From: Candidatus Woesearchaeota archaeon
GTDB taxonomy: Archaea; Nanobdellota; Nanobdellia; SCGC-AAA011-G17; JACPIM01
DNA length: 64,000 bases
Direction: 5' to 3'
Assembly (NCBI GenBank): GCA_964457785.1
Contig: CAYWEX010000002.1
Location: 15,691 to 79,690, forward strand
A program made the translations under genes and the position numbers. The notes below the pieces were generated by a model. That model was not told where the DNA came from. It was given only the letters and a program-made list of their open reading frames with translations, and did no database searches. Every line of letters begins with the position of its first letter. The first letter of the stretch is position 1. Shown here piece by piece: positions 2,981-31,748 of this stretch.

Positions 2981-3008
2981 TTAACCTTTTTATAAAAAGC
3001 TTAACCAA
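2981..3008 (-). repeat. Stem-loop element copy (RNA sense UUGG-UUAAGCUUUU-UAUA-AAAAGGUUAA), ends 1 nt before the ATG at 2979
   Basis: Family member: 10-bp stem with a central G.G mismatch. A U-A pair replaces the consensus G-C pair. Confidence 0.65.
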
Positions 3009-3021
3009 AAACTTTTTGCTT

Positions 3022-3561
3022 TTAATTTTTGTTATTAAACAGCTTTATAATATTTACCCCAACTAAAATCCCAATCAACATTCCACCAATTATATCTGAT
3101 AAATGATGAACACCCAAATATATTCTTGAGAGAGCAACAAGCAAGGAAATTGTTAACCAGGTATATTTGTATTCTTTAAAATTTGAATAAAATATTGGGA
3201 GTAAAGCAAACATTATGGTTGTGTGGCCAGAAGGAAAAGAAAAACTTGATGTTTCAATTAAATTGATTAACGGCCTTGGTCTTTGTATAATTATCTTCAG
3301 AATAAAAACCAATAATCCTGCTGCGAGAAAAGAAGTCCAAAGAGCTATAAGGTTTTTTAACTTCTGATTTTTAAATAATGGAATTAATGTAATTATTACA
3401 GCTAAAAAGTAATAATTAAAGTATTTTGAGAAGAAAATAAAGAATTTATTCAAGCTTTCGATTCTTAAATATTCGATTAAATCTAAAATAAACTTGTCTA
3501 TATAAAAACTTAAAATCAGCATAAAAGTTAAACCAAGCAGTATTTTAGTTGTTTTTTGCAT
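3022..3561 (-). CDS. PAP2-family (polyprenyl-diphosphate/lipid) phosphatase
   Basis: All three PAP2 motifs are present: KIIIQRPRP, PSGHT, SRIYLGVHHLSD. Multi-TM. Confidence 0.85.
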   Translation of the reverse strand: MQKTTKILLGLTFMLILSFYIDKFILDLIEYLRIESLNKFFIFFSKYFNYYFLAVIITLIPLFKNQKLKNLIALWTSFLAAGLLVFILKIIIQRPRPLINLIETSSFSFPSGHTTIMFALLPIFYSNFKEYKYTWLTISLLVALSRIYLGVHHLSDIIGGMLIGILVGVNIIKLFNNKN

Positions 3562-3609
3562 CTTTTGGAAATCCTATAACTTTTTATAAACTTAACTTTT
3601 TATACTTTT

Positions 3610-4128
3610 ATGAAATACTTGCATAATTTAGGAATAAGGCTTTTAACAGCTTTGTTTTTATCTATTTTTGGAATCTATATAGTTTATTTTTTATTAACTT
3701 TACCTACTTTCTTTGCTTCTTATTTAACTTTATTTTTTTATAATCCCGCTATTTTTGGAAATATTTTAGTTATAAATGATATACATCTAGAATTTATTCC
3801 AGCCTGCATGGCTGCTTCAGCTTATGTTTTATTTGCTATTTTAATTTTATTAACAAAAGATATTGACTTTAAAAAGGGAATAAAGATGTTTTTATTAGGG
3901 GGCTTTATTTTATTTATGGTAAATATATTAAGAATATTTGTTTTGGCAATTGCGCTTATTGAATTTGACAAAAGATGGTTTGACACATTACATTTGTTTT
4001 TCTGGCAGATTTTTTCTACTTTTTTTGTTGTTATGACTTGGATTTATTTGACTAAGAAATTCAAAGTTAAGACAATTCCGATTTATTCTGATTTTATGTA
4101 TTTGAAGAGGCATTTAAGGATAAAGTAA
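3610..4128 (+). CDS. Minimal exosortase/archaeosortase-family protein (candidate)
   Basis: 172-aa polytopic protein with a Cys/Arg/His triad in family-typical contexts: IPACMAAS, VNILRIFV, DTLHLFFW. Confidence 0.5.
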   Translation: MKYLHNLGIRLLTALFLSIFGIYIVYFLLTLPTFFASYLTLFFYNPAIFGNILVINDIHLEFIPACMAASAYVLFAILILLTKDIDFKKGIKMFLLGGFILFMVNILRIFVLAIALIEFDKRWFDTLHLFFWQIFSTFFVVMTWIYLTKKFKVKTIPIYSDFMYLKRHLRIK

Positions 4129-4169
4129 ACTTTTTTAAATATTTAATTCCTTAAAGATAGTGTGTTGTT

Positions 4170-4652
4170 CTAGAAGTCTAAATCCTTCAATTCTACAATT
4201 TCTTTAAATCCTTTTAATCCTACACCTACAGATGCAATGGTTTGTGCTCGTGCTTTCATAACCTTTAATAATCCAGAATTAGGCCTTGAATGGAAATAAA
4301 TAGCTACACTATTATATGCTGGACAAGGAAACCTATTCTTATTTTTATTAGTTAAGAGTGCGAGATTGCCTTTTCCATCATTACCATATCTTGGATTTGG
4401 AAAAATCGAAACAGGTCTATGACATCCATGTTCATCTGGAACTTGAACAACTAAGTCTTCAAGTTTAGCAACTATATGTGGAATCTCTTTTTGAGCAATT
4501 TATGCTTCTTCTTTTCCAACTTCGCACTCTCCGATTTGACCAGTCACATATGCACAAATTTCTCTTTCAAAACTGCCTGCATATGTATCAGTATCTATAA
4601 CAAATAAATAATGGTCAGGTTCTTCTCGCTTAACAGGCTTTACCATAAACAT
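4170..4652 (-). pseudogene. 160-codon frame interrupted by one in-frame TAA (codon 51, complement 4500..4502); product unknown
   Basis: Manual translation: MFMVKPVKREEPDHYLFVIDTDTYAGSFEREICAYVTGQIGECEVGKEEA*IAQKEIPHIVAKLEDLVVQVPDEHGCHRPVSIFPNPRYGNDG...KDLDF. A TATA-like AAAATTATAAAG lies ~20 nt upstream. Absent from the ORF track. Confidence 0.55.
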
Positions 4653-4703
4653 AGGAATAAAGCAAGGCTTTATAATTTTTTGCAGGGAAACTCAAGATAA
4701 TTG

Positions 4704-4718
4704 CGAAAAGTTTAAATA
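4704..4718 (+). promoter_or_regulatory. BRE/TATA promoter (CGAAAAG-TTTAAATA) for the 4741 gene
   Basis: TATA centre is ~26 nt upstream of the ATG, consistent with a leaderless or short-leader archaeal mRNA. Confidence 0.5.
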
Positions 4719-4740
4719 TTACTTTGTATTACTTGGTAAT

Positions 4741-5001
4741 ATGATGGAAACTGTGAGCTTAAAATTAGAAAAGAAATTTTCCAAACACCTAGATAAAGTT
4801 ATGAAAAAACATAGTTATAGCACTAAAACTGAATTTATAAGAGAAGCTATTAGAGACAAGATTAATGAATTAGAAACAAAGCAAGCTTTAGAAAGGGCAA
4901 GAAAGATATACGGAGCTTCAAGATTAAAAACTACAGATGAACAATTACATAAAGCAAGAGAGAAAGCAGTTAAAGAGCTAGAGAACGAATTTGGATTGTA
5001 G
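4741..5001 (+). CDS. Ribbon-helix-helix (CopG/RHH) antitoxin-like DNA-binding protein
   Basis: N-terminal beta-strand VSLKLEKKF followed by TKTEFIREAIRDKI, the RHH pattern. Small, with a charged C-terminus. Confidence 0.7.
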   Translation: MMETVSLKLEKKFSKHLDKVMKKHSYSTKTEFIREAIRDKINELETKQALERARKIYGASRLKTTDEQLHKAREKAVKELENEFGL

Positions 5002-5024
5002 CAATTCTTTGGGTTTTTTTACTT

Positions 5025-5399
5025 CTATAATGTTATCAGTTTTTCAAAATGTTTATCTCTAGAAACCATAATCGCGTCATTATCTCTTGAAATGACGGCG
5101 TGTAAAACATCTCCTTTAGGTATATCTTTTTGAGAAGCTAATTTTTTTGATTCTTTTTCTTGATTTCTAGTTATGTGCACTCTTTTTATGTTTCCTAACC
5201 TAAATATTCTAAAAATCGAATTTATTTCGTCTAAATTATAATTTAAATCTTTTAATTCTTTAATGTGAAGATCAGATAAAATAATGGTGACATTCTCTTC
5301 AATTAACTTTAATATTAATTTGAGGGCTTCTTCACCATTTTCGCCTCTTTTTTCATAAGCATCTAATAAAATAGATGTATCTAAATTATAAGTTGTCAT
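5025..5399 (-). CDS. PIN-domain (VapC-like) nuclease
   Basis: LDTSILLD N-terminal acidic motif and SRDNDAIMVSRDKHF distal acidic residues; ~124 aa. Confidence 0.7.
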   Translation of the reverse strand: MTTYNLDTSILLDAYEKRGENGEEALKLILKLIEENVTIILSDLHIKELKDLNYNLDEINSIFRIFRLGNIKRVHITRNQEKESKKLASQKDIPKGDVLHAVISRDNDAIMVSRDKHFEKLITL

Positions 5400-5483
5400 A
5401 ATTTATAAAAAATAATTTGTTGCTTATAACTCTTCTCTAAAAGTTTACGAAAAATCTGAAAGATTTTCGAAATAATTCGTAAG

Positions 5484-6128
5484 TTAATGAAGTTTTTTAT
5501 TATTTAAATAATGGAAGAATATTTCTTTTATTAATGGAATTAATGAGACTATTATAATTAATATTATGACTATATTAAAATTATTCTGAACAAATGGAAT
5601 ATTTCCGAAGAAATAACCAGTAAAAATAAACAGACTACACCAAAGAAAAGCACCAATTGCATTATATTTTAAAAAAGTTGAATATGACATTTTCCCAATA
5701 CCCGCAACAAAAGGAGCAAATGTTCTTATTATGGGTATAAACCTTGCAAGAATTATTGTTTTTTTACCGTGTTTTTCATAAAATAACTGGGAGCGTGTTA
5801 AATGCTCTTTATGGAATAAAAATGAATTTTCTTTATGAAATATTTTTGGACCAATATATTTGCCAACATGATAGTTTACTGCATCTCCCATAATAGCAGC
5901 GATTAAGATTATAAAAAAAACGAATTTTATATTTAGAGAACCCAAAGCAGCTAAAGCCCCAACAACAAATAAAAGAGAGTCACCTGGAAGAAAAGGAGCT
6001 ACAATAAGACCAGTCTCCATAAATATAACAAGAAATAAAAAAACATAACTTAAGGAAGAATATTCCTGGACTACTATTTGGAGATATTTGTCTAAATGTA
6101 AGAAAATATCTATTAATTTTATTGCCAT
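5484..6128 (-). CDS. DedA/VTT-family membrane protein (second paralog)
   Basis: VAPFLPGDSLLFVVGALAA...GDAVNYHVGKYIG...ILARFIPIIRTFAPFVAG. Confidence 0.85.
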   Translation of the reverse strand: MAIKLIDIFLHLDKYLQIVVQEYSSLSYVFLFLVIFMETGLIVAPFLPGDSLLFVVGALAALGSLNIKFVFFIILIAAIMGDAVNYHVGKYIGPKIFHKENSFLFHKEHLTRSQLFYEKHGKKTIILARFIPIIRTFAPFVAGIGKMSYSTFLKYNAIGAFLWCSLFIFTGYFFGNIPFVQNNFNIVIILIIIVSLIPLIKEIFFHYLNNKKLH

Positions 6129-6142
6129 ATTTTTAAGAAATA

Positions 6143-7009
6143 TTACTGTTCATTTTTAAGCTTTCCCTGCATTACTATTAAATCTTCTGTTGTTAATTTA
6201 ACTCTATTTTTTATTTTTTCTTCTACAATCTTTGATTTTTCCTCTATTATCCTTTCCTCTTCTTTTTTTCTTGCTTCTTTTTTATTACTTTCTCTAAAAG
6301 ATGGATTTATTTTTCCAATTTCTATTAAGTTTGTATTTAGTTCTAAGCTTAAATTTTCAGAGTTTTTATTAATTTCATCTACTTCTTTTTGTTTGTCTTC
6401 TTGTGATTTTCTTAATTTATCCAATTGCCTGAATAAATCTTTAAATCCTTTATTTTCTTCTTTATTACAATTCAGGATTTCTTTTATTTTATTATGATAT
6501 GAATTTGCCTTTTCTCTTTCTTCTCTGATATCTTTTGATAATTTTTCTATTTTTTCCTGAATTACAAATAATTCCCCAGAATTCTTAAAATCTGTCTTCA
6601 ATTTTCTTATTTCAGCCATCAGCTTTTTCTCTTTTTCAAAAGAAATAACTTCTGTCTGGATTTTTATCTCTATTTTATCGATTTTTTCCTTTAAAGCCAA
6701 AGGATTGTAATTTATTTTAAATTTCTTTTCCACTTCCTTAGTTTGGATATTTAATGCTTTTAAGGCAGAAACTAAATTTTTAACATTTGTATTATGAGAA
6801 TCTCTTTGTTTTTTTAATTCTTCTAATTCAGCAGAAAATGTATTTTTTTTGTTTTTGAATTCGTTTACTTTATTTAGAACTTCCCTAATTTCAGATCTTA
6901 TTTTTTGTATTTCTTTTAATTTTTCTCTTTTTGTTAAATTTAAGCTGTTAAGGTTACTTCTAAGTAGATTAATGTCCTTTTTTAATTTATATAAGTCAGC
7001 TTTCTCCAT
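6143..7009 (-). CDS. Long coiled-coil protein (archaeal COG1340-like)
   Basis: Heptad-rich K/E/L/N composition throughout and no enzymatic motifs; lies downstream of the stalk operon. Confidence 0.55.
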   Translation of the reverse strand: MEKADLYKLKKDINLLRSNLNSLNLTKREKLKEIQKIRSEIREVLNKVNEFKNKKNTFSAELEELKKQRDSHNTNVKNLVSALKALNIQTKEVEKKFKINYNPLALKEKIDKIEIKIQTEVISFEKEKKLMAEIRKLKTDFKNSGELFVIQEKIEKLSKDIREEREKANSYHNKIKEILNCNKEENKGFKDLFRQLDKLRKSQEDKQKEVDEINKNSENLSLELNTNLIEIGKINPSFRESNKKEARKKEEERIIEEKSKIVEEKIKNRVKLTTEDLIVMQGKLKNEQ

Positions 7010-7051
7010 ATTAAAAATAAAATAACTGAAGTCATCAGTTTAAGGCAAGGC

Positions 7052-7351
7052 TTATCCAAATAATGAGCCTAAACCTGCGGCTGCTGCTTCTTCAGCTTTC
7101 TTTTCGTCTTCTGCTGATTTCTTTTCTTCTTTCTTGGCTTCTGCTTTTGTTTCTGCTGCTGGTGCTGCAACTGGTATAGCTGCTTGTTTTATGACTTCGT
7201 CTATATTTACGCCGTCTAAAGCTGCTAATAAAGCTCTTGCTTTCATTTCGTCTGCATGACCACCTGCTGCATCTACAACTTTTTTAACTCTATCAGTTGT
7301 CAATTCTGCTCCAAGTTTATGGATCAGCAAAGCTGAATAAACATATTCCAT
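7052..7351 (-). CDS. rpl12: Ribosomal stalk protein P1 (aL12)
   Basis: [15 protein letters not shown]-terminus, Ala/Glu/Lys hinge and conserved C-terminal GLGSLFG. SD GGAGGT lies 5 nt upstream. Confidence 0.92.
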
Positions 7352-7366
7352 ATTTAACCTCCGAAA

Positions 7367-8473
7367 TTATATTTCTCCTCTAATTTTTTTATCAGTAAGC
7401 TGTCTTAAGATATCTGCTGCTCTCTGCATTTCATCTTTTTCAGCATTAACTTTTTTCATTTCAACTTTAGTATCATTATTTTCTTTTACTTTTTCAATTT
7501 CTTCTTTTAAGGAATCTTTTTGAAAAGAAGCTTCACCAAGAGCTGGTTTTTCTTCAACATTTTTCGGTTCTTCTTTCAATTCTTCAGTTTTTTGTTCTGG
7601 TTCTGAAACTATTTCTTCAGAAATTTCATTAACTTCTTGTTTTACTTCCTCTTTTGATATTTCTATATTTTTTGTTTCAACTGAATCTAAATTTGGTACT
7701 TTTGTTTCTAAAGCTGATGCTTCTAAATAGGCTTTCTTCACTAATATTTCTATAGTTTCCTTTACTGGATATGATATGTTTACTGCTAAGTTTATAGATT
7801 CATGGAAAGCTAATTTTAAATTGTTTAGGAATTCCTCTTCATTTATATCCAAGATGTCTTTTGTCAATATTTCTCCATTTTTATAGGTTAATATTAGATT
7901 AAAACCAATTTCCATTGGCGCAATTCCTAGTTTGCTTAGAATACTAGCTACTTTTGAATTTATTTCTTCGCCTTCTCTTACAATTAGTTTATCTTCTTTT
8001 ATATGTATTTTTCCTTCTAAAACTTGAGTCTTAATTCCTAGCTGTCCGAATTCACCAATCATAGGGCCTGGTGTAAATTGTGTTGGACCTGCATTTATTG
8101 TAATGTCTTTATTTGCAATCTGACCTGGCTTAGCAAAAGCACTTGATTTATTTTTATTTAAGTTTTTTTGCAGCTTGAATTCATCTTCATTTGTGAATAA
8201 TAATGCTGGTGATCCCTTAATCATGTCTCCTATTTTGGAAATTTCTTTTTTTTCTTTTTCCAATTGAGACAATGCTATTTTTATCAATCTTTTTTTAGTG
8301 ACTTTTATAGAGACCTTATCTTTTAATTTATGCTTTATTTTCAAAAACTGGCTGGCTGGGAGATTTTGAAGATTTAAAACTCCAATTACATTATGCTTTC
8401 TAATTAAATCTTTTAATTGCTCTATTTCTTTCTTTTTATATTCACTTACATGAGCTACTTGGACTTGCTGCAT
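7367..8473 (-). CDS. rpl10: Ribosomal protein uL10 (P0) with a long K/E-rich C-terminal extension
   Basis: N-terminal P0 domain (EYKKKEIEQLKDLIRKHNVIGVLNLQNLPASQ...). Sits between L1 and L12. Confidence 0.88.
   Translation of the reverse strand: MQQVQVAHVSEYKKKEIEQLKDLIRKHNVIGVLNLQNLPASQFLKIKHKLKDKVSIKVTKKRLIKIALSQLEKEKKEISKIGDMIKGSPALLFTNEDEFKLQKNLNKNKSSAFAKPGQIANKDITINAGPTQFTPGPMIGEFGQLGIKTQVLEGKIHIKEDKLIVREGEEINSKVASILSKLGIAPMEIGFNLILTYKNGEILTKDILDINEEEFLNNLKLAFHESINLAVNISYPVKETIEILVKKAYLEASALETKVPNLDSVETKNIEISKEEVKQEVNEISEEIVSEPEQKTEELKEEPKNVEEKPALGEASFQKDSLKEEIEKVKENNDTKVEMKKVNAEKDEMQRAADILRQLTDKKIRGEI
7511..7539 (-). repeat. Stem-loop element copy inside the uL10 coding tail (translated ALGEASFQKDS)
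   Basis: CTTGGTGAAGCTTCTTTTCAAAAAGATTCC; stem GAAGCUU/AAGAUUC with a G.A mismatch. Shares an extra ~15 nt (GAAGAAAAACCAGC) with the uS3 copy. Confidence 0.7.
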
Positions 8474-8501
8474 TTAAACTTTTAGAAAAGTTTAATCAAA
8501 C

Positions 8502-8521: not shown

Positions 8522-8535
8522 AATCTCCTAAACTT

Positions 8536-9264: not shown

Positions 9265-9277
9265 TAATTCCCTCCTA

Positions 9278-9306
9278 CGAACCTTTTTTGGGAAAAGCTT
9301 CACCAA
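9278..9306 (-). repeat. Stem-loop element copy (UUGG-UGAAGCUUUU-CCCAA-AAAAGGUUCG) 13 nt upstream of the uL1 ATG
   Basis: 10-bp stem with a G.G mismatch. One C-G pair of the consensus is replaced by U-A. Confidence 0.8.
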
Positions 9307-9469
9307 AAAGCTACGGATAAACCGTTGTAGTTCAAATGGGTTATATTTTTTGTAAATTTAGGATTTATAAAACTTAGTATTTATTCTGTTATTTCTTTAG
9401 AATAGTAACAAAAAGAAAGGTTTAAATACAAGTTTATGGCTTTTATGGCAAAATGGAAGAAGGTATAAA

Positions 9470-10270
9470 ATGAGCTATTCAAGAAAATTAAGTAAAGCAG
9501 AAAGAGAATTAATAGGACAAAAAGTAGCTGAATTAGGAACTTCAAAATCCCAAATAGTTAAGGAACTTGCTTTGGAACTTGCAGAATCAAGGAAAGCTGT
9601 TTCTAATAAATTTTATGGCCATTCTAATCTTTTTGATATTGAAGCTAATGTTTTATACAGAATTTTAGGAGAAGATCCAATATTGAATTTTTTAGCTGAT
9701 TACAAACCATTAGTAGAACCAATTGAAGTTAAAGAACCAAGAAAAGTAAGGGAAAAAGAACAAATTGAAGAAAAGAAAAGCTACCAAAGAAAATTAAGTA
9801 AAAAAGAAATAGAGAAAATATCACAAAAAGTAAATGAATTGGGAACTTCAAAATCACAAATAGTTAAAAGATTTTATCAACAAACAGGTATGAAAAAGAG
9901 TTCTGCCGGGTATAAATTCTTTGGGTTATGCCCAATAACTGAAGAGGAAGCTGGGGTTTTGTATAAAGTTTTGGGAGAGGATCATAATTTAGATTTTTTA
10001 ATTAATTATAGAGCTACGGAAGTAAAAAATCCAGAATTAGTTGGAGAGAAAAAACCAAAGAAAGAAAATGAAATTTTTCCTGAAGAAAAAGAAATATCTG
10101 AAAAACCAAGATTACTGAAAACTTCTTTGTCTGCTATTGAAAAAGCCAGGGAAAAATTAATTGATATTTACCTGGAACATATTAAATCTGATTATTTACA
10201 AGGTGATTCAGAGAGAAGAATAGAACTTACACATGGATTGGAAAAATTATTAGAAGACTTGGAAAAATAA
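9470..10270 (+). CDS. Tandem-duplicated HTH-like protein, unknown function
   Basis: Two ~78-aa repeats (aa 2-79 and 104-181: SY.RKLSK.E...KV.ELGTSKSQIVK...VLY+.LGED..L.FL..Y). The C-terminal motif is shared with the next gene. Confidence 0.55.
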   Translation: MSYSRKLSKAERELIGQKVAELGTSKSQIVKELALELAESRKAVSNKFYGHSNLFDIEANVLYRILGEDPILNFLADYKPLVEPIEVKEPRKVREKEQIEEKKSYQRKLSKKEIEKISQKVNELGTSKSQIVKRFYQQTGMKKSSAGYKFFGLCPITEEEAGVLYKVLGEDHNLDFLINYRATEVKNPELVGEKKPKKENEIFPEEKEISEKPRLLKTSLSAIEKAREKLIDIYLEHIKSDYLQGDSERRIELTHGLEKLLEDLEK

Positions 10271-12280: not shown

Positions 12281-12556
12281 TTAAGCTATATCTCTGTGAG
12301 TTTCATACATAAATGAAGCTTCTTTGCTGTGCTTTTTTAGTTCTTTTACAACCTGCTTAAAAATATCATTTGAAGTAACTGTTTTTTTAGTTTTAATCCA
12401 TTTTTTTACACAAGCTGTTACTTTCTCACATATTTTTTCAGTTTGTTTTTTATTAAAATTACAACAGCTTAGGGTAGCTTCATAACATGAACCATATATT
12501 TTCCTTTCATCAAATTTTTCCTTATGACCTTTTCTTTTTACAATGTGCTCAACCAT
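12281..12556 (-). CDS. Stand-alone ATP-cone domain protein
   Basis: VKRKGHKEKFDERKIYGSCYEA matches the ATP-cone N-terminal pattern (V.KRdG..E.Fd..KI); 91 aa. Confidence 0.65.
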   Translation of the reverse strand: MVEHIVKRKGHKEKFDERKIYGSCYEATLSCCNFNKKQTEKICEKVTACVKKWIKTKKTVTSNDIFKQVVKELKKHSKEASFMYETHRDIA

Positions 12557-12584
12557 AAACCTTTTTAGGAAAAAGCTTTACTAA
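12556..12584 (-). repeat. Stem-loop element copy (UUAG-UAAAGCUUUUU-CCU-AAAAAGGUUUA); the last stem base is the A of the ATG
   Basis: 11-bp stem with a G.G mismatch. An A-U pair replaces the consensus G-C pair. Confidence 0.65.
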
Positions 12585-12607
12585 AAAAACTTTTTCTTTT
12601 GACCTCC

Positions 12608-16517: not shown

Positions 16518-16931
16518 TTATTTTTGTTCTTGAGAAGATAGTTCATTTAATTCCACGGTTAATTGCTCTGAATACATTGCTGCTTTTGTCAATTCTTCTT
16601 TTACAGCTTCCTGAGACTGGTTAATGTTAGTTATCTGTGTTTTTACTAAATGCATGGCTTCATCTAATGTTTTTGTAACTAAAACTCCAGCACCAACATT
16701 TACAATTACATTTCCGGGATCTGCTAGTTTACTATTAATAAAAATTCCTGATCCTAATGAGGAAAATACTTCAGAATCTTTTTTAATATCTCTCATTTCT
16801 ATCATGGAAGTTTCTAAAGTTGTTAATTCACCCAACTGATGCTGTAAAATCATAAATTGTTCCTGGACTTTTTTTATCTGCTGGTTAAGAATCTGCAATT
16901 CAATATATTTTTGCTGGATCTCTTCTTTCAT
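16518..16931 (-). CDS. pfdA: Prefoldin alpha subunit
   Basis: Coiled coil - double beta-hairpin (SLGSGIFINSKL...VIVNVGAGVLV) - coiled coil. Confidence 0.8.
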   Translation of the reverse strand: MKEEIQQKYIELQILNQQIKKVQEQFMILQHQLGELTTLETSMIEMRDIKKDSEVFSSLGSGIFINSKLADPGNVIVNVGAGVLVTKTLDEAMHLVKTQITNINQSQEAVKEELTKAAMYSEQLTVELNELSSQEQK

Positions 16932-16932
16932 T

Positions 16933-16961
16933 TAAATTTTTTTAAAAAAAAGCTTTACCAA
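16933..16961 (-). repeat. Degenerate stem-loop element copy (UUGG-UAAAGCUUUUU-UUU-AAAAAAAUUUA), 1 nt upstream of the prefoldin ATG
   Basis: Keeps the UUGG-UAAAGCUU 5' half; the 3' half has decayed to A/U. Two mismatches. Confidence 0.4.
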
Positions 16962-16967
16962 GAAAAG

Positions 16968-17651
16968 CTATTTCTTTGCTCCTTTTGATTTTTTAGCTTT
17001 AGTTTCTGTTTTAGTTTTTTTAGCTTTGGGTTTTTCTATTTTAACTTTAGGCTCTTTTTTTGCCTCTTTTTTCTCAACAACTTTTTCTTCCTTTTTTATT
17101 TCTTTTTTCTCAGGAAGAACTTTCTTTTCCTTCTTCTGCTTCTCTTTTATTTCATAACCCAATACTTTTAACTCTCTTTTTATTGTTTCAGAAGCTTCAT
17201 TCTTTTTTATCTCTAATTTTTTATCTAAAGTTTTTAAATGAAGAACGTTACATTTTCTTCTTCTTACCTGGCCATCAATTAATACAAAATTATCATCTAT
17301 TTTATCAACAACAACACATACTGAACCTGCTTCTCTTCCTGCTGTTTTTATACAAATCTGGCCTAAATCTAATGGAAGCTCTTTAAGATCTTTGAATTTT
17401 TCTATTATTTTTTCTCTTGAACAGTTTGAACATAAGTTTCCACCATAAGGTCTAGCTACTGTTTTTTGGGAATAAGGCAGGTTTCTAAAATCAGAAGGCC
17501 TTTCTCGAGGAATACCAATTAATTCTTTATGGCAATTACCGCATTTTGCTATACTTGGTTTTCTTTTTTCATAATGAGTAACTAACCTATTTCCAGGAGT
17601 ACGAACTTGAATTCTTCTTAAGCTTCTTGTTGCCTGTGGTTGTATTGCCAT
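16968..17651 (-). CDS. Fusion of ribosomal proteins eL34 (N-terminal) and eL14 (C-terminal) with a Lys-rich tail
   Basis: aa 1-~88: RSLRRIQVRTPGNRLVTHYEKRKP...CGNC...GGNLCSNC (eL34 zinc ribbon). aa ~95-165: GQICIKTAGREAGSVCVVVDKIDDNFVLIDG...RRRKCNVLHL (eL14 KOW). Single uninterrupted frame. Confidence 0.8.
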   Translation of the reverse strand: MAIQPQATRSLRRIQVRTPGNRLVTHYEKRKPSIAKCGNCHKELIGIPRERPSDFRNLPYSQKTVARPYGGNLCSNCSREKIIEKFKDLKELPLDLGQICIKTAGREAGSVCVVVDKIDDNFVLIDGQVRRRKCNVLHLKTLDKKLEIKKNEASETIKRELKVLGYEIKEKQKKEKKVLPEKKEIKKEEKVVEKKEAKKEPKVKIEKPKAKKTKTETKAKKSKGAKK

Positions 17652-19561: not shown

Positions 19562-19972
19562 TTACTTTTCTAAAATTTGTCCACCTATTTTTTCTATTTT
19601 TTCTTTTGCATTTCCTGAAAAGCTTTCAACAATAATTGTAACTTTTCTAGTTATATTTCCTTTGCCTAATAATTTATTATAGCCAAGATCTGTTAAATTT
19701 ATTTTATCTTCCTTGAATTTATTTAAATCTTCAACATTTATTGTTTTTACTTCTGATAATAATTTTTGAGGTCTTCTAAAACCCAATTTACCAAAGTAAG
19801 CATGGCCAAATTGCTTCAAGATCATTGTTTTTCTATGATCAGATCTTTTACCAGTACCAGACATTCCATGACCACCACGATTACCTGCTTTTCTGTGTTT
19901 TTTCTTACTACCCCAGCCATAAGTATAACTTCCTTTCTGTCTTGAATTTTTCTTTCTTTTATTTACCGGCAT
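19562..19972 (-). CDS. rpl15: Ribosomal protein uL15
   Basis: YGWGSKKKHRKAGNRGGHGMSGTGK motif; operon position. Confidence 0.9.
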   Translation of the reverse strand: MPVNKRKKNSRQKGSYTYGWGSKKKHRKAGNRGGHGMSGTGKRSDHRKTMILKQFGHAYFGKLGFRRPQKLLSEVKTINVEDLNKFKEDKINLTDLGYNKLLGKGNITRKVTIIVESFSGNAKEKIEKIGGQILEK

Positions 19973-19973
19973 A

Positions 19974-20001
19974 TGATCTTTTTGTGAAAAAGCTCAACCA
20001 A
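19974..20001 (-). repeat. Stem-loop element copy (UUGGU-UGAGCUUUUU-CAC-AAAAAGAUCA), 1 nt upstream of the uL15 ATG
   Basis: Stem retained after loss of one nucleotide from each arm; G.A mismatch. Confidence 0.55.
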
Positions 20002-20023
20002 AAACGTTAAACTTTTCATCCTC

Positions 20024-20505: not shown

Positions 20506-21303
20506 TTAGGATATAACCTCTGGAATTGGCTCTCTTCTATTGCTGAATGTTTTTGTTGAGCTTAATTTTTTCAAGGCTTCAAAACATGCTGTGATTAAAT
20601 TTAATTTTGTTCTTGACTGGCCGAAAGTTCTTGAATAAATATCTTTAATTCCTGCAAAAGCCAACATTTTTGCGCATTCTTTTTCAACACACAAGCCAGT
20701 TCCTTTTGGTGCTGGGAATAATTCAATTTCAACTGACCCGCATTTTGACTTAACTGCAAATGGAATTGAATGAGTGCCTTTGCAATTACATTCCCATGAA
20801 CCGCAGCCAGTTTTTATTTTAATCATATTTAATTTTGCTTTTCTTACTGACTTTTCCCTTGCTGGAACTGTTTCTTTTGCTTTACCATAACCATAACCAA
20901 CATAACAATCTTTGTTACCTATTATAGCTAAGGCTGAAAATTTTGGCTTGTTACCTTCTGCTGTTTTTTTCTGAGTTTGCCTCCAAATAGATCTTTTACC
21001 ACCACCAAACTTTCCTTTGCTTTGGCCTACTAGAATAAAATCAGTTTCTAAATTAGGAATTAATAAATCAACAATATTAGCTTCAAGAATTCTCAATCCT
21101 TTTCCTAAAATTTCATCAATATCAGTAATTTTTCTTTCATTTACAAGCTTACCTAAATGTGTTTTAGGTTTCCAGTCACTTAGCTCTTCTCTTATAACTA
21201 CACCAGCAGGCAATTCTGCCTCTACTCCCTCTGTCAAAGCTGCAGCTATTTCAGTGCTTTCAAGCTTGCTTTCTTCTTGTTCTGGTAATTTTTTCTTTTC
21301 CAT
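20506..21303 (-). CDS. rps5: Ribosomal protein uS5
   Basis: dsRBD plus S5 C-terminal domain (FILVGQSKGKFGGGKR...IIGNKDCYVGYGYGKAKE). ATG at 21303 preferred over the GTG at 21330, which reads through the element. Confidence 0.9.
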   Translation of the reverse strand: MEKKKLPEQEESKLESTEIAAALTEGVEAELPAGVVIREELSDWKPKTHLGKLVNERKITDIDEILGKGLRILEANIVDLLIPNLETDFILVGQSKGKFGGGKRSIWRQTQKKTAEGNKPKFSALAIIGNKDCYVGYGYGKAKETVPAREKSVRKAKLNMIKIKTGCGSWECNCKGTHSIPFAVKSKCGSVEIELFPAPKGTGLCVEKECAKMLAFAGIKDIYSRTFGQSRTKLNLITACFEALKKLSSTKTFSNRREPIPEVIS

Positions 21304-21305
21304 TG

Positions 21306-21328
21306 GAACCCTTTTAACAAAAGCGTTC
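21306..21328 (-). repeat. Stem-loop element copy (GAACGCUUUU-GUU-AAAAGGGUUC), 2 nt upstream of the uS5 ATG
   Basis: An extra C-G pair is inserted symmetrically in both arms; G.G mismatch retained. A second small hairpin CACGGAAAACCGTG lies at 21328..21341. Confidence 0.55.
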
Positions 21329-21345
21329 ACGGAAAACCGTGGCTT

Positions 21346-26073: not shown

Positions 26074-26075
26074 TT

Positions 26076-26802: not shown

Positions 26803-27077
26803 TTTTTTAATCTGTCTTCCGGTCTTCCAACCAAAAGTTCTCCACTTACTTTTATTTCATTATTATCTACAAAAATTTTTAATGTAACTTGGTCTTTTAA
26901 CAAAGTTTTATTATGATGAGAACCAAGATTATTATTGTCTTCTACTTTAATTTTTAAAGTATTTCTAGTTTCATCTATTATAGTGCCCTTGATTCCGATC
27001 AAGTTCTTGTTTTTTGATTCTATTACTTCCATTTTTAAACCTATCAGCTCATGCCTCAAAAAATCATTTAGATTCAT
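26799..27077 (-). CDS. rnp1: RNase P protein component 1 (Rpp29/Pop4)
   Basis: ELIGLKMEVIESKNKNLIGIKGTIIDETRNTLKI; canonical position between SUI1 and S17. Confidence 0.8.
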   Translation of the reverse strand: MNLNDFLRHELIGLKMEVIESKNKNLIGIKGTIIDETRNTLKIKVEDNNNLGSHHNKTLLKDQVTLKIFVDNNEIKVSGELLVGRPEDRLKK

Positions 27078-27078
27078 T

Positions 27079-27387
27079 TTAGTTTGTTTCTATTGATTCT
27101 GATGAAAAACCCAATCTTACGAGTTCTTCTTTTGTTTTTTCAGCATGTTCTCCCTGTAATTCTATTGTATCTCCTTTGACTGTGCCTCCACAAGCAAATT
27201 TTGATTTTAATTTCTTTGCCAAATCCCTAAGGTCAATTTCCTTGTTGTTTATTCCATAAACAACTGTGATTAATTTTCCGAATTTTCTTTTTTCGATTTT
27301 AACTTTTATTCTTTGACCTTCTTTAGCTATTGTCTCACAAACACAAAGGTCTTTTGGCAAACCACATTTTGAACATATTTCGTTCAT
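27079..27387 (-). CDS. sui1: Translation initiation factor SUI1 (aIF1)
   Basis: N-terminal CxxC...CxC knuckle and [10 protein letters not shown]...[11 protein letters not shown] core. Confidence 0.9.
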
Positions 27388-27605
27388 TTCTTTTTCGCGA
27401 CCTCCACAGACTGGGTCTGATTTTTTGGATTCATTAATGTTAAAATTCTTGCAATTGTCCTTCTTGTATTTCTAATTAAAGCTGGCTTTTCCAGTGTTGT
27501 TCCTCTTGCCCTTTTTGCATTTAAAACAATCAATTCTTTTCTAAGTTCAACTATTTTAGATTTCAAATCTTCTTGTTTTAATTGTCTTAATTCATTGATT
27601 TTCAT
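27384..27605 (-). CDS. rpl29: Ribosomal protein uL29
   Basis: [23 protein letters not shown]. Confidence 0.85.
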
Positions 27606-28395
27606 TTTCTTCTACTTTTTCCACAATTACTTCTTCTGTTTTTTCTTCTACAATTTCTTCTTTGACTTTTTTTGATCTTTTCTTTTTCTCTTTTACTTCT
27701 GAACCTTCTTTGGGAGAAGCTTCACCAAGTGCTGGTTTTTCTTCTACAATTTCTTCTTTTATTTCTGGCTCTGGTTTTTTCTCGACTAGATCCATGTTTT
27801 TATCTAAAATTAATATTTTATCTGGAAGCACTATGTCTGGAGTCATTACACTTACTTTTATTCCAATTACACCAGATTTTAAATTAGCTTGAGCAATTGC
27901 TTTTTTTACTTTATCAGATGCTATATAACCTGATTTTTTTAAATGTCCTGCTTTAAATCTCCAGCTTCTTGCTCTTGCACTTGGGACTTTTCCTGAAATA
28001 ACTATTTCGGCTCCAAGAGCACCAGCATTAATTATATCCTGCAAGGTTTTGTAACCAACTGACTTAAATCTCTTTGAACCAAATCTCACCAGAGTTGATG
28101 ATATTTTATCTGCAATGAAATTTGCATCGAGCATAGGATTTTGCAATTCACCAATTTCAATTTGTGGATTTTCCATTTTGAATTTTCTCTTCAAAACATT
28201 TGTTAGTTTCCTTATGTTTTCTCCTTTTTTACCCACTACTAGACCTGGCCTTGTTGTGTAGATAATTACTTTTTCACCTAAGGGAGTTCTTTGAATATCT
28301 ATATGTGAAAATCCAGTTCCACCAAATTCTCCTTTAATATATTCCTGAATCTGGAATTCCTTTATTTTTTGACTGACAAATTGTCTTTCTATCAT
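27592..28395 (-). CDS. rps3: Ribosomal protein uS3 with a K/E-rich C-terminal extension
   Basis: KH domain GLVVGKKGENIRKL plus the S3 C-terminal domain. Confidence 0.9.
   Translation of the reverse strand: MIERQFVSQKIKEFQIQEYIKGEFGGTGFSHIDIQRTPLGEKVIIYTTRPGLVVGKKGENIRKLTNVLKRKFKMENPQIEIGELQNPMLDANFIADKISSTLVRFGSKRFKSVGYKTLQDIINAGALGAEIVISGKVPSARARSWRFKAGHLKKSGYIASDKVKKAIAQANLKSGVIGIKVSVMTPDIVLPDKILILDKNMDLVEKKPEPEIKEEIVEEKPALGEASPKEGSEVKEKKKRSKKVKEEIVEEKTEEVIVEKVEENENQ
27700..27728 (-). repeat. Stem-loop element copy inside the uS3 coding tail (translated ALGEASPKEGS)
   Basis: UUGG-UGAAGCUUCU-CCCAA-AGAAGGUUCA: 9 of 10 positions paired with a G.G mismatch. 29/30 nt identical to the uL22 copy. 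Confidence 0.8.
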
Positions 28396-28877
28396 TTTTT
28401 TGAACCTTCTTTGGAAGAAGCTTCACCAAGCATTTTTTTGGGTTTTTCTTCAACTTTTGATTTTTGTTTTTCTGAAGCATAAATTTCAACATCAGTTCTT
28501 TTCATTCTTCTTCCTTTATGCCTGCTGTAATGCCATGATACTGATCCTGAATTTGCAATTGCTTTTTCTATTTTCAACAATTCTGAATTTAGGCCTTTAT
28601 TTTTTGCATTGCCTTCTAATGTTTGAAGCAATTGTAAAAAGTGCATTGATGCTTTTTTAGGATAAAAACCAGGACCTTGATGTCCTGCTTTGTGTCCTCT
28701 CTTATGATAAAATCTTTTTAATTTGATTACTTCTTTTTCTTCCAAAACATTGTTCAATACTTTTCTTATTTTTGCAATTTCCTTGCCTTTCATAAATGAA
28801 CAAATTTCAATTGCATGCTTTGTTGAAATAGGCAAACCTGATCCAGATACTTTTGCTAAATTTTTTTCTTCTGTCAT
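28392..28877 (-). CDS. rpl22: Ribosomal protein uL22
   Basis: LPISTKHAIEICSFMKGK...; operon position. Confidence 0.9.
   Translation of the reverse strand: MTEEKNLAKVSGSGLPISTKHAIEICSFMKGKEIAKIRKVLNNVLEEKEVIKLKRFYHKRGHKAGHQGPGFYPKKASMHFLQLLQTLEGNAKNKGLNSELLKIEKAIANSGSVSWHYSRHKGRRMKRTDVEIYASEKQKSKVEEKPKKMLGEASSKEGSKK
28401..28429 (-). repeat. Stem-loop element copy inside the uL22 coding tail (translated MLGEASSKEGSKK*), 5 nt upstream of the uS3 ATG
   Basis: UUGG-UGAAGCUUCU-UCCAA-AGAAGGUUCA. Confidence 0.8.
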
Positions 28878-28878
28878 T

Positions 28879-29277
28879 TTACTTCTTTGGAGATGCTCCT
28901 GAACTAGATCTTGTAGCTCCTATACCAGGGGCTGAATGCTGAACTCTCCTTCTTGTTATTACAAATTCGCCCAAGTAATGGCCTAATTTTTCTACTGTTA
29001 TTGCAACAGGAACAAATTCCTTTCCACTATAAACATGTATTATTGTACCTAAAAATTCAGGTATGACTATCATATCTCTGCAGTGAGTTTTGATATTTTT
29101 CTTTATTTTTCCCAGCTTGAATTTTTTTATTTTTTCAATTAATTTTTTATGCTGGTCTGGAAGACCTCTCTTTAAATTTCTTCTCTGCCTTGAGGTTGTT
29201 AAATTCATGAAATCAATTAGAGTCATATCTTTGAATTCTCTTTCTGTCTTTCCTTTATATGTTGGTTCTTTAGCCAT
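28879..29277 (-). CDS. rps19: Ribosomal protein uS19
   Basis: HCRDMIVIPEFLGTIIHVYSGKEFVPV...GEFVITRR. Confidence 0.9.
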   Translation of the reverse strand: MAKEPTYKGKTEREFKDMTLIDFMNLTTSRQRRNLKRGLPDQHKKLIEKIKKFKLGKIKKNIKTHCRDMIVIPEFLGTIIHVYSGKEFVPVAITVEKLGHYLGEFVITRRRVQHSAPGIGATRSSSGASPKK

Positions 29278-29283
29278 TTTTAA

Positions 29284-29562
29284 TTAGTCCTTATTATTTT
29301 TTTTATGTCTCTTAATTTCTTCCAAAATTCTTTTTTCAACTTCCCCAATTTTTTCATCATCACCGAATAAAACTACTGTCATATAATTATCTGGATAGGA
29401 CCGAGCTTCTGTTTTTATAGCAATATCTTGAAAGAAATGAACATATGTTCCACGTGATATTTCTCTGATAATTGTCTCTGCTCCCATCATATTCATCATA
29501 CCATTAAAAACAAGAGGATTACAGAAATTTTCTTGTGGTCCGTTATAAATTTCTTTAGCCAT
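29284..29562 (-). CDS. Uncharacterised 92-aa protein inserted between uL2 and uS19
   Basis: Intact ORF; 1-nt gap after the uL2 stop and 6 nt before the uS19 ATG; no known motif. Confidence 0.55.
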   Translation of the reverse strand: MAKEIYNGPQENFCNPLVFNGMMNMMGAETIIREISRGTYVHFFQDIAIKTEARSYPDNYMTVVLFGDDEKIGEVEKRILEEIKRHKKNNKD

Positions 29563-29563
29563 T

Positions 29564-30286
29564 TTACTTTCTACCTGTTCTCCTTGCAGCGACTTTACCT
29601 ACTTTTCTTCCTGGTGGAGCATTTCTACTTACTACTTTAATCTTTGCGTGCATTCTTCCTCTACCAGAACCATAAGGATGATTCAAAGCATTCATAGCAA
29701 CTGCTGAAGTTTGAGGATATATTTTTCCTCTTGTTCTCATATAATGCCATCTTTTTCCAGCTTTTACAAACGGCTTGTCTTTTCTTCCGTGACCAGACAA
29801 AGTTCCTATTGTTGCCCTGCAATCTGGCTGGAATTTTTTTTGTTTTTTTGACGGCAACTCAATTAAAATTGAATCTTTAGTTGAGCTGATTATTTTTGCA
29901 AATGTTCCTGCAGCTCTGCAGAATTTACCGCCATCTCCTGGGGAGCTTTCTATATTATATATTAAAGTTCCCTCTGGAATTACTTTTAATGGAATTGTAT
30001 TTCCGTTGTTAATGGCTGAAGTGAAACCTGATTCTATAATATCATTGACTCTTATATTCAAAGGAGCCAGAATATATGCTTCTTCATTATTAGCGAATTT
30101 TATTTTTGCCAAAGGTGTTGTGTGGCCAGGACACTTTACTAAATCGATAACTTTGCCTGAAATTTTTGATGATTTTTCAATTTGATCATATTTTCTGTAT
30201 TTTACATCTGCCAAAAAATGACCAGAGTTAGCTCTATAAACTGGTGTTCCACGTCCACGTCTTCTGATCATTATTCTCTTTCCCAT
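29564..30286 (-). CDS. rpl2: Ribosomal protein uL2
   Basis: GTLIYNIESSPGDGGKFCRAAG...HPYGSGRGR. Confidence 0.95.
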   Translation of the reverse strand: MGKRIMIRRRGRGTPVYRANSGHFLADVKYRKYDQIEKSSKISGKVIDLVKCPGHTTPLAKIKFANNEEAYILAPLNIRVNDIIESGFTSAINNGNTIPLKVIPEGTLIYNIESSPGDGGKFCRAAGTFAKIISSTKDSILIELPSKKQKKFQPDCRATIGTLSGHGRKDKPFVKAGKRWHYMRTRGKIYPQTSAVAMNALNHPYGSGRGRMHAKIKVVSRNAPPGRKVGKVAARRTGRK

Positions 30287-30610
30287 TTATAATTGAGCTC
30301 CTACATCAGCTAATATTTTTACTAGTCTTGATCTTTCGCTTTCTGGAAATATTTGAATTCTATCTTTTGTTAAATGCATCATGCTGAATGAGGATATTGG
30401 TTTGTAAGTTACAATTCCATCTAATTCCATTATCCAATGATCTCGTGCTATGATAAATTCATTTTGTTTTCCTCTTTTTTTAAAAACGTGCTCTCTTTTT
30501 GTTTCTGATAATCCTAAATATTCAGCTTCTTCTATTTCTCCGTTTGGATATTTTTCTACACGATAAACATTTCCTTTTGTGAGTGCTGGTTTTTTAAAAT
30601 ATTCTTGCAT
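30287..30610 (-). CDS. Uncharacterised 107-aa protein inserted between uL23 and uL2
   Basis: Intact ORF abutting the uL2 ATG (0-nt gap) and 1 nt after the uL23 stop; no known motif. Confidence 0.55.
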   Translation of the reverse strand: MQEYFKKPALTKGNVYRVEKYPNGEIEEAEYLGLSETKREHVFKKRGKQNEFIIARDHWIMELDGIVTYKPISSFSMMHLTKDRIQIFPESERSRLVKILADVGAQL

Positions 30611-30611
30611 T

Positions 30612-30869
30612 TTACATTAGTCCTAGTTTTGTTGCTACATCCATGGCATTATTTTCCTTATTTAATTTGACGTATGCTTTTTTTCCTTCTACTCCTATTA
30701 GAGTATTTATTTTTTGAACTTTCACGTTGAACAGTTCTTCAACTGCTTTTTTTATATCTGGTTTTTTTGCTTTTCTGTCTACTATAAAAACAATTTTATT
30801 TTCTGTTTCCATTAACTTGAAACATTTTTCAGTTGCTACAGGATATTTTATTATTTCGTGACTTTCCAT
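30612..30869 (-). CDS. rpl23: Ribosomal protein uL23
   Basis: IIKYPVATEKCFKLMETENKIVFIVDRKAKKPDIKKAVE. Confidence 0.9.
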   Translation of the reverse strand: MESHEIIKYPVATEKCFKLMETENKIVFIVDRKAKKPDIKKAVEELFNVKVQKINTLIGVEGKKAYVKLNKENNAMDVATKLGLM

Positions 30870-31748
30870 TTACTTTTTTACCTTTGAACCTTCTTTTGAA
30901 GAAGCTTTACCAATAACCTTTTTTGAAACTTCTTGCTTTATTTCATTTGTAAATAATTTTTTTTCATTTAATATATCAATTGCGTCTTTTGTGAATAAAG
31001 TTAATCTTCCTGGTGTTCCACCTGGCGCTAATAACTCGACATTGATATTATTTATTAAAGTACAGTCAATTCCTTTAATTGAAGTTAAAACTTTTGAAAC
31101 CTCATGCTTTTTACCGAGAACAAATAAGGGACCTTTTTTATTTTGATATTTTCTTCCTCTTTTACTTCCCTGGCCTGCCTTTACTTTTTTTACATCCAAT
31201 CTTTGAAGTTCATTTTCAAGACCAATTTTTTCCAAGAATTTTAGTAAATCTTTTGTTTTCTTTAGATCATATAATTTATTATCAATAATTAAGGGCAGGT
31301 ATTTGAATAAATGGCCACGAGCTTTTACTAATTCCTGATTTATTACTGCGCTTAATGCAGACCTGATTGCTTTTCTGTTTTCTTTTTTATTTATTTTTTC
31401 ATCATAAATTTTGTAAGCTTTTGGAACATGAGCTCTTCTACCTTTGTATGTTCCTGGAGCAAATGCACCCATCCATTGGAATTGTGATCCTCTTCTTAAC
31501 AATATTTTTCTAGGTGCTCTGGAAATCCCTTTACCATAAGAACCTCTAAAGTCGCGTCTTCTTCTTGATATTTTTGCAGAAACTCTCTGACCTGCAGTTG
31601 GATAAGAACCATAAGGTTGTTTTTTATTTGATCTAATTGCCAAGAAAGCTCTTTGAATTAAATCTTTTCTTAAAGGCTCATTAAACTGACTAGGCAATTC
31701 AACTGAACCTGATTTACTTCCATCTGTGTTATATATATCTGCTTTCAT
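30870..31748 (-). CDS. rpl4: Ribosomal protein uL4
   Basis: L4/L1e family core (SYGKGISRAPR...GRRAHVPK); operon position. Confidence 0.9.
   Translation of the reverse strand: MKADIYNTDGSKSGSVELPSQFNEPLRKDLIQRAFLAIRSNKKQPYGSYPTAGQRVSAKISRRRRDFRGSYGKGISRAPRKILLRRGSQFQWMGAFAPGTYKGRRAHVPKAYKIYDEKINKKENRKAIRSALSAVINQELVKARGHLFKYLPLIIDNKLYDLKKTKDLLKFLEKIGLENELQRLDVKKVKAGQGSKRGRKYQNKKGPLFVLGKKHEVSKVLTSIKGIDCTLINNINVELLAPGGTPGRLTLFTKDAIDILNEKKLFTNEIKQEVSKKVIGKASSKEGSKVKK
30885..30913 (-). repeat. Stem-loop element copy inside the uL4 coding tail (translated VIGKASSKEGSKVKK*), 15 nt upstream of the uL23 ATG
   Basis: UUGG-UAAAGCUUCU-UCAAA-AGAAGGUUCA; 27/30 nt identical to the uL22 copy. Confidence 0.75.

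Follow-up and report, generated by a model that had tools for sequence, protein, structure and literature searches.

A stretch of 64,000 nucleotides from a Candidatus Woesearchaeota archaeon (contig CAYWEX010000002.1, positions 15,691 to 79,690 of the forward strand; hereafter the window) contains ten copies of a short palindromic element. We regard these copies, with a probability of about 0.5, as members of a copy-proliferating repeat that acts at the DNA level and resembles the repetitive extragenic palindromic (REP) elements of bacteria and the Rickettsia palindromic elements (RPEs). The element consists of a 5′ T-run followed by GG, a 10-bp A/T-rich stem, and a pyrimidine triloop, and a purine-purine mismatch adjoins the sole internal C-G pair of the stem. 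It has been copied into many unrelated places, namely gene junctions, protein tails, tRNA introns, RNase P RNA, and an rRNA spacer. The protein tails that receive the element are disordered, and it is in frame there. The strand-specific features (arm complementarity, purine-purine mismatch, pyrimidine loop, and 5′ T5GG) are kept irrespective of the direction of transcription, and therefore the recognised or selected unit would be the hairpin on one DNA strand.

All ten copies described in the initial annotation of this DNA were found on the minus strand; nine are strong and one is divergent. A consensus search allowing three mismatches recovers the core copies, with 0.01 matches expected. A covariance model was trained on 39 copies and then run on the window. 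Nine copies, all of them minus-strand and located within 2979-30918, scored 34-51 bits (E 3e-8 to 7e-5), and the copy at 21303-21338 reached only 10.9 bits with this A-type model. The latter copy belongs to a separate conserved subfamily (B type, TTTTCCG-TGAACGC...GGGTTC) that keeps the G.G mismatch and also occurs at L053 and, on unrelated contigs, at L147 and L170; L-numbers are labels of loci drawn from public genome and metagenome scans. The model found no copy in 32-64 kb of the window and gave no support to a candidate eleventh copy at 58283-58303. The eight copies that had been placed 0-15 nt 5′ of a start codon indeed lie 0, 1, 1, 1, 2, 6, 13, and 15 nt from the next ATG. Four copies (7511, 27700, 28401, and 30885) lie inside the upstream open reading frame (ORF) in one shared frame, a coding location that had been missed. 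They translate as LGEASFQKDS, LGEASPKEGS, LGEASSKEGS, and IGKASSKEGS in the C-terminal tails of uL10/P0, uS3, uL22, and uL4, respectively. The 5′ T-run (TTTTTGG) is present in 6/6 intergenic copies and 0/4 coding copies. Likewise, the T5/A5 stem of the intergenic copies is broken in the coding copies (TTCT/AGAA), where the stem change is compensated.

Beyond the window, the element forms a family of 32-36 nt found in more than 100 places in public genomes and metagenomes, with the consensus TTTTTGG-T(G/A)AAGC-TTTTT-YYY-AAAAA-GGTT(C/T)(A). The matches are hosted by Woesearchaeota/Nanoarchaeota, Micrarchaeota, and Iainarchaeota/Diapherotrites assemblies; taxon labels are those of the deposited metagenome-assembled genomes (MAGs), and gene calls at related loci are simple ORF calls. 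An exact-pattern scan of species-representative genomes returned at least 115 loci. Among the genome matches listed, 34 lie in DPANN assemblies labelled Woesearchaeota, Nanoarchaeota, Micrarchaeota, Iainarchaeum, or Diapherotrites and two more look mis-binned, which makes 36 archaeal loci among the matches listed. A stricter 29-nt pattern was found in at least 80 metagenome contigs, mostly from groundwater. Copies at related loci score 45-57 bits with the covariance model. Besides the A type and the B type, which has an inserted C-G pair, the family includes a C type (GATGAAAC...GTTTC) with A-T in place of the mismatch and a further variant in which C-G replaces U-A. Tandem arrays with mixed subfamily types also occur. 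Matches in bacterial genomes were treated as chance, being devoid of the T5GG tag and placed inside ordinary coding sequence. In Bacteroidota (L004, L018, L058, L091, L098, and L102), GGTGAAGCTTTTTTTGAAAAAGGTTT lies within one conserved protein-coding gene (...IGEAFFEKGFGKK...); its likeness to the archaeal element is due to chance and can contaminate pattern searches. A virus or plasmid origin was also rejected, with just 1 and 4 exact matches among 2.9 million viral contigs. The initial annotation did not recognise the sequence as a described element, and the same came out of an Rfam scan of the window, which gave no match at the gathering threshold. The sequence was not found in the papers searched, and papers on archaeal REPs and MITEs (miniature transposable elements with inverted repeats) do not describe it. 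The family is apparently undescribed so far.

The placement of the element relative to genes was surveyed in 79 non-redundant copies in other genomes. Orientation to the neighbouring genes is mixed, so that the co-orientation of all copies with genes, as first described, is confined to the window. Most copies elsewhere are intergenic, and several lie within ORFs and RNA genes. The RNase P RNA of three genomes carries the element, in sense orientation at L045 and L157 and in antisense orientation at L014, and at L045 it forms an insertion of 29 nt in the P3 loop. In canonical tRNA introns, the element occupies the distal loop, in antisense (L069, L002, L025, L104, L130, and L167) or sense orientation (L009 and L195). 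Other copies lie 1-2 nt 5′ of tRNA 5′ ends (L078, L115, and L101), 4 nt past antisense tRNA 3′ ends (L051 and L133), and, in two cases, in the spacer immediately 5′ of a 23S rRNA. Copies are also found within long ORFs, for example at L010 (1224 aa) and L021 (672 aa). A bulge-helix-bulge splice site was considered and set aside. In the L069 intron, the flanks form the splice motif and the element is the distal loop only; the coding copies are in frame and therefore do not need splicing. T(G/A)A at both ends of the element provides a stop codon in one frame per strand. The stop codon of an antisense gene abuts or overlaps the GGTTC end in 14/79 copies versus 1.2 expected (maximum 4 in 300 randomisations), and this is the commonest tight arrangement. 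A sense ATG within 4 nt of the same end occurs in 5/79 copies versus 1.1 expected. The start-codon proximity of the initial annotation holds in the window and is not a fixed feature of the family as a whole. The spacer on the T5GG side is variable.

The pairing of the arms around a central G.G (G.A in the 7511 and 19974 copies) is as originally described. The outermost pair is G-C or A-T in 36/39 copies (GC 20, AU 16, other 3) and in 68/71 copies of a second sample (GC 42, AT 26, other 3), counts that refer to copies and not to independent events, with the 3′ partner left free by the search pattern in both samples. Both states of this pair exist within the genome of the window, and at least five separate double changes preserve the complementarity of the arms. 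Intrastrand pairing is favoured over a plain protein-binding palindrome by the sequence comparison, because the arms stay complementary through changes on both sides. On the sense strand, the loop is 84% pyrimidine. The predicted RNA folds of the window copies range from 0 to -9.6 kcal/mol with z-scores of -1.8 to +1.6; the 16933 copy is unfolded, and the fold of the 7511 copy is a different one. For single-stranded DNA, the predicted fold of the sense strand, with its G.G and pyrimidine loop, is at -7.4/-8.0 kcal/mol (z -3.8/-5.0), compared with -3.9/-4.5 kcal/mol (z -1.2/-2.1) for the antisense strand. Covariation had been taken to indicate a structured RNA or single-stranded DNA; the intrastrand pairing stands, and the weak folds speak against a regulatory RNA. 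A kink-turn or L7Ae site, in which a 3-nt bulge precedes tandem sheared G.A pairs, was rejected on reading the sequence: its one purine-purine mismatch is symmetric, and neither a bulge nor tandem G.A is present.

Copies on a contig also tend to share one strand. All ten copies in the window lie on one strand, as do 5/5 copies on a 143,890-nt contig from Hainich, although two of these are sense and three antisense to their neighbour genes; the latter count assumes that the GenBank slice (L053) and the ENA slices (L134 and L176) are co-directed, which was verified on the sister contig only. The Hainich sister contig has two copies on the same strand with opposite relation to genes.

Close relatives differ by gain, loss, and tandem duplication of copies. 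L053 (~80% identity to the window) has, at the uL18|uS5 junction, an additional, cleanly delimited 46-nt segment with a canonical A-type copy that the window lacks; L053 retains the B-type variant at this junction, and the segment lies just upstream of it. The uS3 tail copy of the window matches a decayed copy in L053, which has a further partial copy. In the uL22 tail, the copy is identical at 29/30 nt between the window and L053, and its flanks contain three indels. L118 (~67% identical) has neither the uL22-tail nor the uS3-tail copy, and its uL22 ends ~20 codons earlier, directly overlapping the uS3 start. L120, L132, and L191 share an orthologous membrane-protein gene with a 36/36-identical copy 2 nt 5′ of the ATG in each, and the products of L120 and L132 show only ~50% identity. 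Where L120 carries only A, the orthologous L132 carries a B+C+A array; the gained B and C units amount to 57 nt. In all three loci, a small upstream ORF led by a Shine-Dalgarno (SD) sequence crosses the element or elements and ends at a TGA overlapping the main ATG, and the gained units of L132 leave this reading frame open. It can be concluded from the differences in L053, L118, and L132 that copies are both added and lost.

Several related loci have further repeated structures around the element. At L196 (2500-3000, minus strand), the 16S-tRNA-23S spacer and a tRNA intron are dense with related A/T-rich palindromes, including GAAACTTTTAAAGAAAAGTTTC twice, CAAGCTTTAAAAAAGCTTG, and two A-type copies. 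At L063 (1-180), L097 (43-260), L137, and L182 (the last two as minus/plus strand regions), a complete tRNA (Arg-CCT, Pro-CGG, Ile-TAT, or Arg-TCT) is followed by 55-95 nt with two small conserved hairpins and an A-type element, and then by a second copy of the last 20 nt of the tRNA, beginning in the T-loop. This arrangement resembles a very small insertion with a long duplication of its target, or an att-like scar; only the element and a tRNA 3′ fragment are present at L028. Tandem units of a gene 3′ end plus the element were found at L175 (8790-8918)/L194, L006 (3980-4160), and L043 (5400-5610). One case duplicates the final ~30 nt of a class II aminoacyl-tRNA synthetase gene and another the end of a zinc-finger gene; the third is a repeat with a 138-nt period on a 52% G+C Micrarchaeota contig.

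The mechanism proposed for this repeat starts from a DNA hairpin on one strand, which is predicted to fold about twice as well as its complement and would be the form that is recognised. A putative conserved DPANN factor may handle this hairpin much as REP elements are handled in bacteria or the end hairpins in IS200/IS605. That the window copies lie so close to start codons would then mainly be due to insertion where genes meet, in a genome that has hardly any intergenic DNA. Co-option as boundary signals may have occurred for some copies, which is possible because T5 runs are present on both strands and a stop codon at each end. Near-identity across phyla together with conserved orthologous copies is unusual for selfish repeats and suggests a conserved host factor or host function. 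A bolder and less probable version is that of a pan-DPANN, strand-specific DNA hairpin element with a putative conserved host factor that has been domesticated as a gene-boundary cassette. It would be the first archaeal REP/RAYT-like (REP-associated tyrosine transposase) system. In its cassette form, it would provide a stop codon at either end, T5 terminators for each strand, and a TATA-like box placed for leaderless mRNAs and tRNAs.

Several results weigh against a proliferating repeat. The core is near-identical across three phyla, in which bacterial REPs differ by being lineage-specific. The retained orthologous copies are conserved far above their surroundings, which points to host-level selection or homogenisation rather than mere selfish persistence. 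The tight excess of gene ends at the GGTTC end suggests a function or a target preference outside the repeat model. The 46-nt indel between L053 and the window is clean, with no target-site duplication or defined insertion site, and the Pfam screen of the window genes found no transposase or integrase among them. Strand concordance is broken by L006 versus L101, L071, L051, and L184, and strand counts are relative to the contig and not to replication direction for every contig.

The alternative that survives best, although it is rather unlikely, is a portable transcription boundary cassette. According to this explanation, TTTTTGGT would be a TATA-like box 24 nt before the start of leaderless mRNAs and tRNAs, incoming transcription would end at the T5 runs present on either strand, and the palindrome would be a spacer or a regulator site. 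The canonical promoters of the genome (RAAAGS+TTTAWATA) end 22-24 nt before the ATG, and the mRNAs would therefore be leaderless. In copies adjacent to an ATG or a tRNA, the T-rich box of the element, 24 nt 5′ of the ATG or tRNA +1, has this same geometry. Archaeal core promoters have an A/T-rich 8-mer centred ~26 nt 5′ of the transcription start, immediately preceded by a purine-rich transcription factor B recognition element (BRE). A T-run+GGT 8-mer lies at ATG-32 to -25 in five ATG-adjacent window copies and in L048, L054, L120, and L132, and the spacing to the mature tRNA 5′ end is equal in L078, L115, and L101. A fixed promoter placement with this geometry is reported for the leaderless tRNAs of Nanoarchaeum equitans (PMC10100707). 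In the opposite orientation, six genes start 21-25 nt past the T5GG box, and the antisense T5 follows the 14 antisense stop codons by a few nt. The restriction of T-runs to the intergenic window copies also agrees with this explanation. However, TTTTTGG is not among the known TATA sequences, TTTTTGGT is atypical when set beside promoters with a BRE and TATA box, and C-rich loops prevail. In L120 and L132, a canonical TATA lies ~80 nt upstream and the SD-led small ORF crosses the element, so that the element there is transcribed and does not act as a promoter. Many copies lie where no promoter can act; those in RNase P RNA, tRNA introns, rRNA spacers, and ORFs could not promote or terminate transcription harmlessly, and terminators within the spc ribosomal protein operon would be odd. 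The left arm GAAGC+TTTTT was also tried as BRE/TATA and rejected; it predicts a start ~12 nt inside genes, which have no alternative ATG there.

An improbable explanation is a cis-acting mRNA hairpin for translation-start control or intercistronic processing or stability, perhaps bound by a protein at the G.G, as the initial annotation had proposed. It would account for the eight of ten window copies close before a start codon, all ten being co-oriented with genes, and for the pairing preserved through double changes. An upstream frame that runs through the element to a TGA overlapping the next ATG (L120, L132, and uL22|uS3) fits translational coupling. The RNA folds are, however, weak and no better than those of shuffled sequences, and orientation is mixed family-wide, with RNase P RNA and tRNA intron copies both ways and antisense exceeding sense at tight gene ends. 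Strand features are conserved even where the transcript would bear the C.C version, and the same junctions in relatives are without the element. The AAGGU of the 3′ arm, read earlier as a partial SD sequence, lies 1-4 nt from the ATG, too near given the 16S 3′ end GGATCACCTCCT, which was read in L196. GGTGA of the left arm could pair with the 16S end, yet the five ATG-adjacent window copies lack GGTGA, and an SD role was rejected. The translational-operator model accounts for the window and not for the family, and is not supported.

It is equally doubtful that the element is a dyad-symmetric double-stranded DNA site for a conserved DPANN dimeric protein, such as a regulator of translation genes or a nucleoid protein. 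The sequence does form a 10-N3-10 dyad whose non-A/T positions, GAAGC/GGTTC, are strongly conserved across phyla. Copies are enriched beside ribosomal protein, tRNA, rRNA, and RNase P genes and absent from the 30-kb glycosylation island of the window, and a tandem ribbon-helix-helix (RHH) protein gene is divergent from the uL1 copy. The half-sites are nevertheless consistently unlike (GAAGC versus GAACC), and the loop is strand-biased. Moreover, a symmetric dimer leaves the complementarity-preserving two-arm changes within one genome unexplained, and regulatory logic is absent for sites in RNA genes and ORFs. That selection acts on a peptide motif, LGEAS.KEGS, in the tails of ribosomal proteins, and that the intergenic copies are decayed coding sequence, is highly improbable and was rejected: the four coding copies share one frame and related GEAS strings occur in the L053 uS3 tail, but six of the copies in the window, and the majority of those elsewhere, do not code or are antisense, relatives are without the tails, and the choice of frame is explained by tolerance because the other frames give a built-in stop (TGA/TAA) or a hydrophobic peptide.

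The proliferating-repeat interpretation can be compared with known systems. Like the REP/REPIN-RAYT elements of bacteria, the element is an imperfect palindrome of 20-40 nt with a short conserved 5′ tag and many copies (10 in 64 kb), lies mostly at gene ends in both orientations, and forms tandem mosaic arrays of variant subfamilies. In both, a stem mismatch marks one strand, and a single-stranded DNA hairpin is the likely recognised form. In contrast to bacterial REPs, the tag is TTTTTGG(T) and not GTAG or CGTC, the stem is A/T-rich and not G+C-rich, and arrays are direct and not alternating. A considerable fraction of the copies lies within genes, in frame in protein tails or in RNA genes (in the window, 6/10 are intergenic and 4/10 coding). 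REPs go with a cognate single-copy RAYT (Y1 HUH) gene in the same genome; no RAYT-like gene was found among the window genes in the Pfam screen of the window. Because the REP tag is absent and no cognate nuclease was found, the element is not filed as a REP or RPE member. RPEs are inserted in frame into protein-coding genes, where they add a peptide in tolerant surface regions; they also occur in RNA genes and intergenic DNA, are 100-150 bp long, and are restricted to Rickettsia. The in-frame insertion in the uL10, uS3, uL22, and uL4 tails, with L118 orthologues (uL22 and uS3) lacking it, is similar. In contrast, the present element is ~32 nt (32-36), belongs to DPANN archaea, and adds only ~10 residues.

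The subterminal hairpins of IS200/IS605 are also imperfect hairpins recognised on one DNA strand, in which a mismatched base gives strand identity. For this family, use of the lagging-strand template is expected to bias orientation along the chromosome (PMC6006769). Unlike these insertion sequences, the element shows no transposase among the window genes, no left/right end pair, and no defined target tetranucleotide. Intron transposition in the tRNA genes of Thermoproteales has left near-identical short sequences in introns of different tRNA genes. In the present case, the shared part is only the distal loop of otherwise canonical introns, and the sequence also occurs outside tRNAs and in either orientation. 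MITEs have terminal inverted repeats flanked by a short target-site duplication and measure at least ~40-50 bp. The smallest archaeal MITE reported is 41 bp (PMC11602168), which is longer than the element, and the indel between the window and L053 does not show the target-site duplication of a MITE.

A near-identical 32-nt sequence across several DPANN phyla implies a conserved and so far undescribed recognition system. DPANN archaea have tiny, tightly packed genomes, and their non-coding signals and mobile DNA are almost uncharacterised. If the element is selfish, it is an example of repeat persistence in streamlined symbiont genomes that lengthens ribosomal proteins; as a boundary signal, it would define transcription start and stop in the organisms that bear it. 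In practice, it may serve as a lineage marker for binning DPANN contigs, and it also causes errors in annotation, where, for example, ORFs are extended, tRNA introns missed, or RNase P RNAs mis-scored.

The individual copies of the window, all on the minus strand, differ in context and preservation. The copy at 2979-3013 (41.2 bits) is an A-type copy, TTTTTGG-TTAAGC-TTTTT-AT-AAAAA-GGTTAA, and lies between a PAP2 gene and a CTP_transf_1-family gene, whose ATG is 1 nt past the stem. The copy at 7509-7544 (41.2 bits) lies in the C-terminal region of uL10/P0 (Pfam Ribosomal_L10); its T-runs are absent and its right arm is degenerate (G.A plus C.A). At 9276-9311 (50.3 bits), an A-type copy occupies the divergent intergenic region 5′ of uL1, with a GGAGG SD sequence between the element and the ATG, 13 nt away. 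The intergenic A-type copy at 12554-12589 (50.8 bits) has A-U as its outer pair, and the ATG of the ATP-cone gene overlaps its last stem base. The A-type copy at 16931-16966 (44 bits), between the eL34-KOW fusion gene and prefoldin, has a decayed right arm and no predicted fold, and the next ATG is 1 nt on. The same distance separates the ATG from the A-type copy at the uL30|uL15 junction (19971-20006; 34.2 bits), which is short by one base in each arm. The B-type copy at the uL18|uS5 junction (21303-21338), TTTTCCG-TGAACGC-TTTT-GTT-AAAA-GGGTTC, has the extra C-G pair and an ATG 2 nt on. Among the coding copies, that of the uS3 C-terminal tail (27698-27733; 40.8 bits) has stem C-G instead of U-A. 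The copy in the C-terminal extension of uL22 (28399-28434; 47.8 bits) ends 6 nt 5′ of the uS3 ATG, which overlaps the uL22 stop. That of the uL4 C-terminal tail (30883-30918; 43.9 bits) is followed by the uL23 ATG 15 nt on.

The window is part of a 90,366-nt ENA contig and has 29% G+C. Its nearest public sequences are Nanoarchaeota/Woesearchaeota assemblies, with a Hainich groundwater MAG at the top (~80% identity over 8 kb). A tRNA scan of the window found none. Archaeal translation genes lie on the minus strand in the first half, including the uL1-uL10-P1 cluster, a long ribosomal protein operon from uL3 to uL15, the eL34-KOW fusion, and prefoldin. The second half (34-64 kb) is the glycosylation island. 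Glycosylation and radical-SAM genes occupy both strands at 33800-64000, and nearly every gene there has a canonical RAAAGS+TTTAWATA promoter ending 22-24 nt 5′ of its own ATG (leaderless); no element copy lies in the island.

Some genes of the window have unusual features of their own. The ORF at 16968-17651 (minus strand) combines Ribosomal_L34e (residues 7-86), a KOW motif (97-126; E 6e-4, under the Pfam cut-off), and a lysine-rich tail, and is apparently an eL34/eL14-like fusion. The uL10/P0 protein (7367-8473, minus strand; 368 aa) ends in ...DKKIRGEI without the GLGSLFG stalk tail, which is present in the neighbouring P1 protein (7052-7351, minus strand), and the sequence 3′ of the inserted element looks unlike a normal P0 C-terminus. 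The gene at 9470-10270 (plus strand), with weak RHH matches, diverges from both the uL1 operon and the 9276-9311 copy and contains an internal 89-nt direct repeat (9473-9561 and 9779-9867; 306 nt apart, 83% identical). Toxin-antitoxin genes adjoin the translation clusters at 4741-5399 and 33491-33826; they comprise an RHH/VapB-like gene that is convergent with a PIN gene, and a gene with a weak match of the ParE kind.

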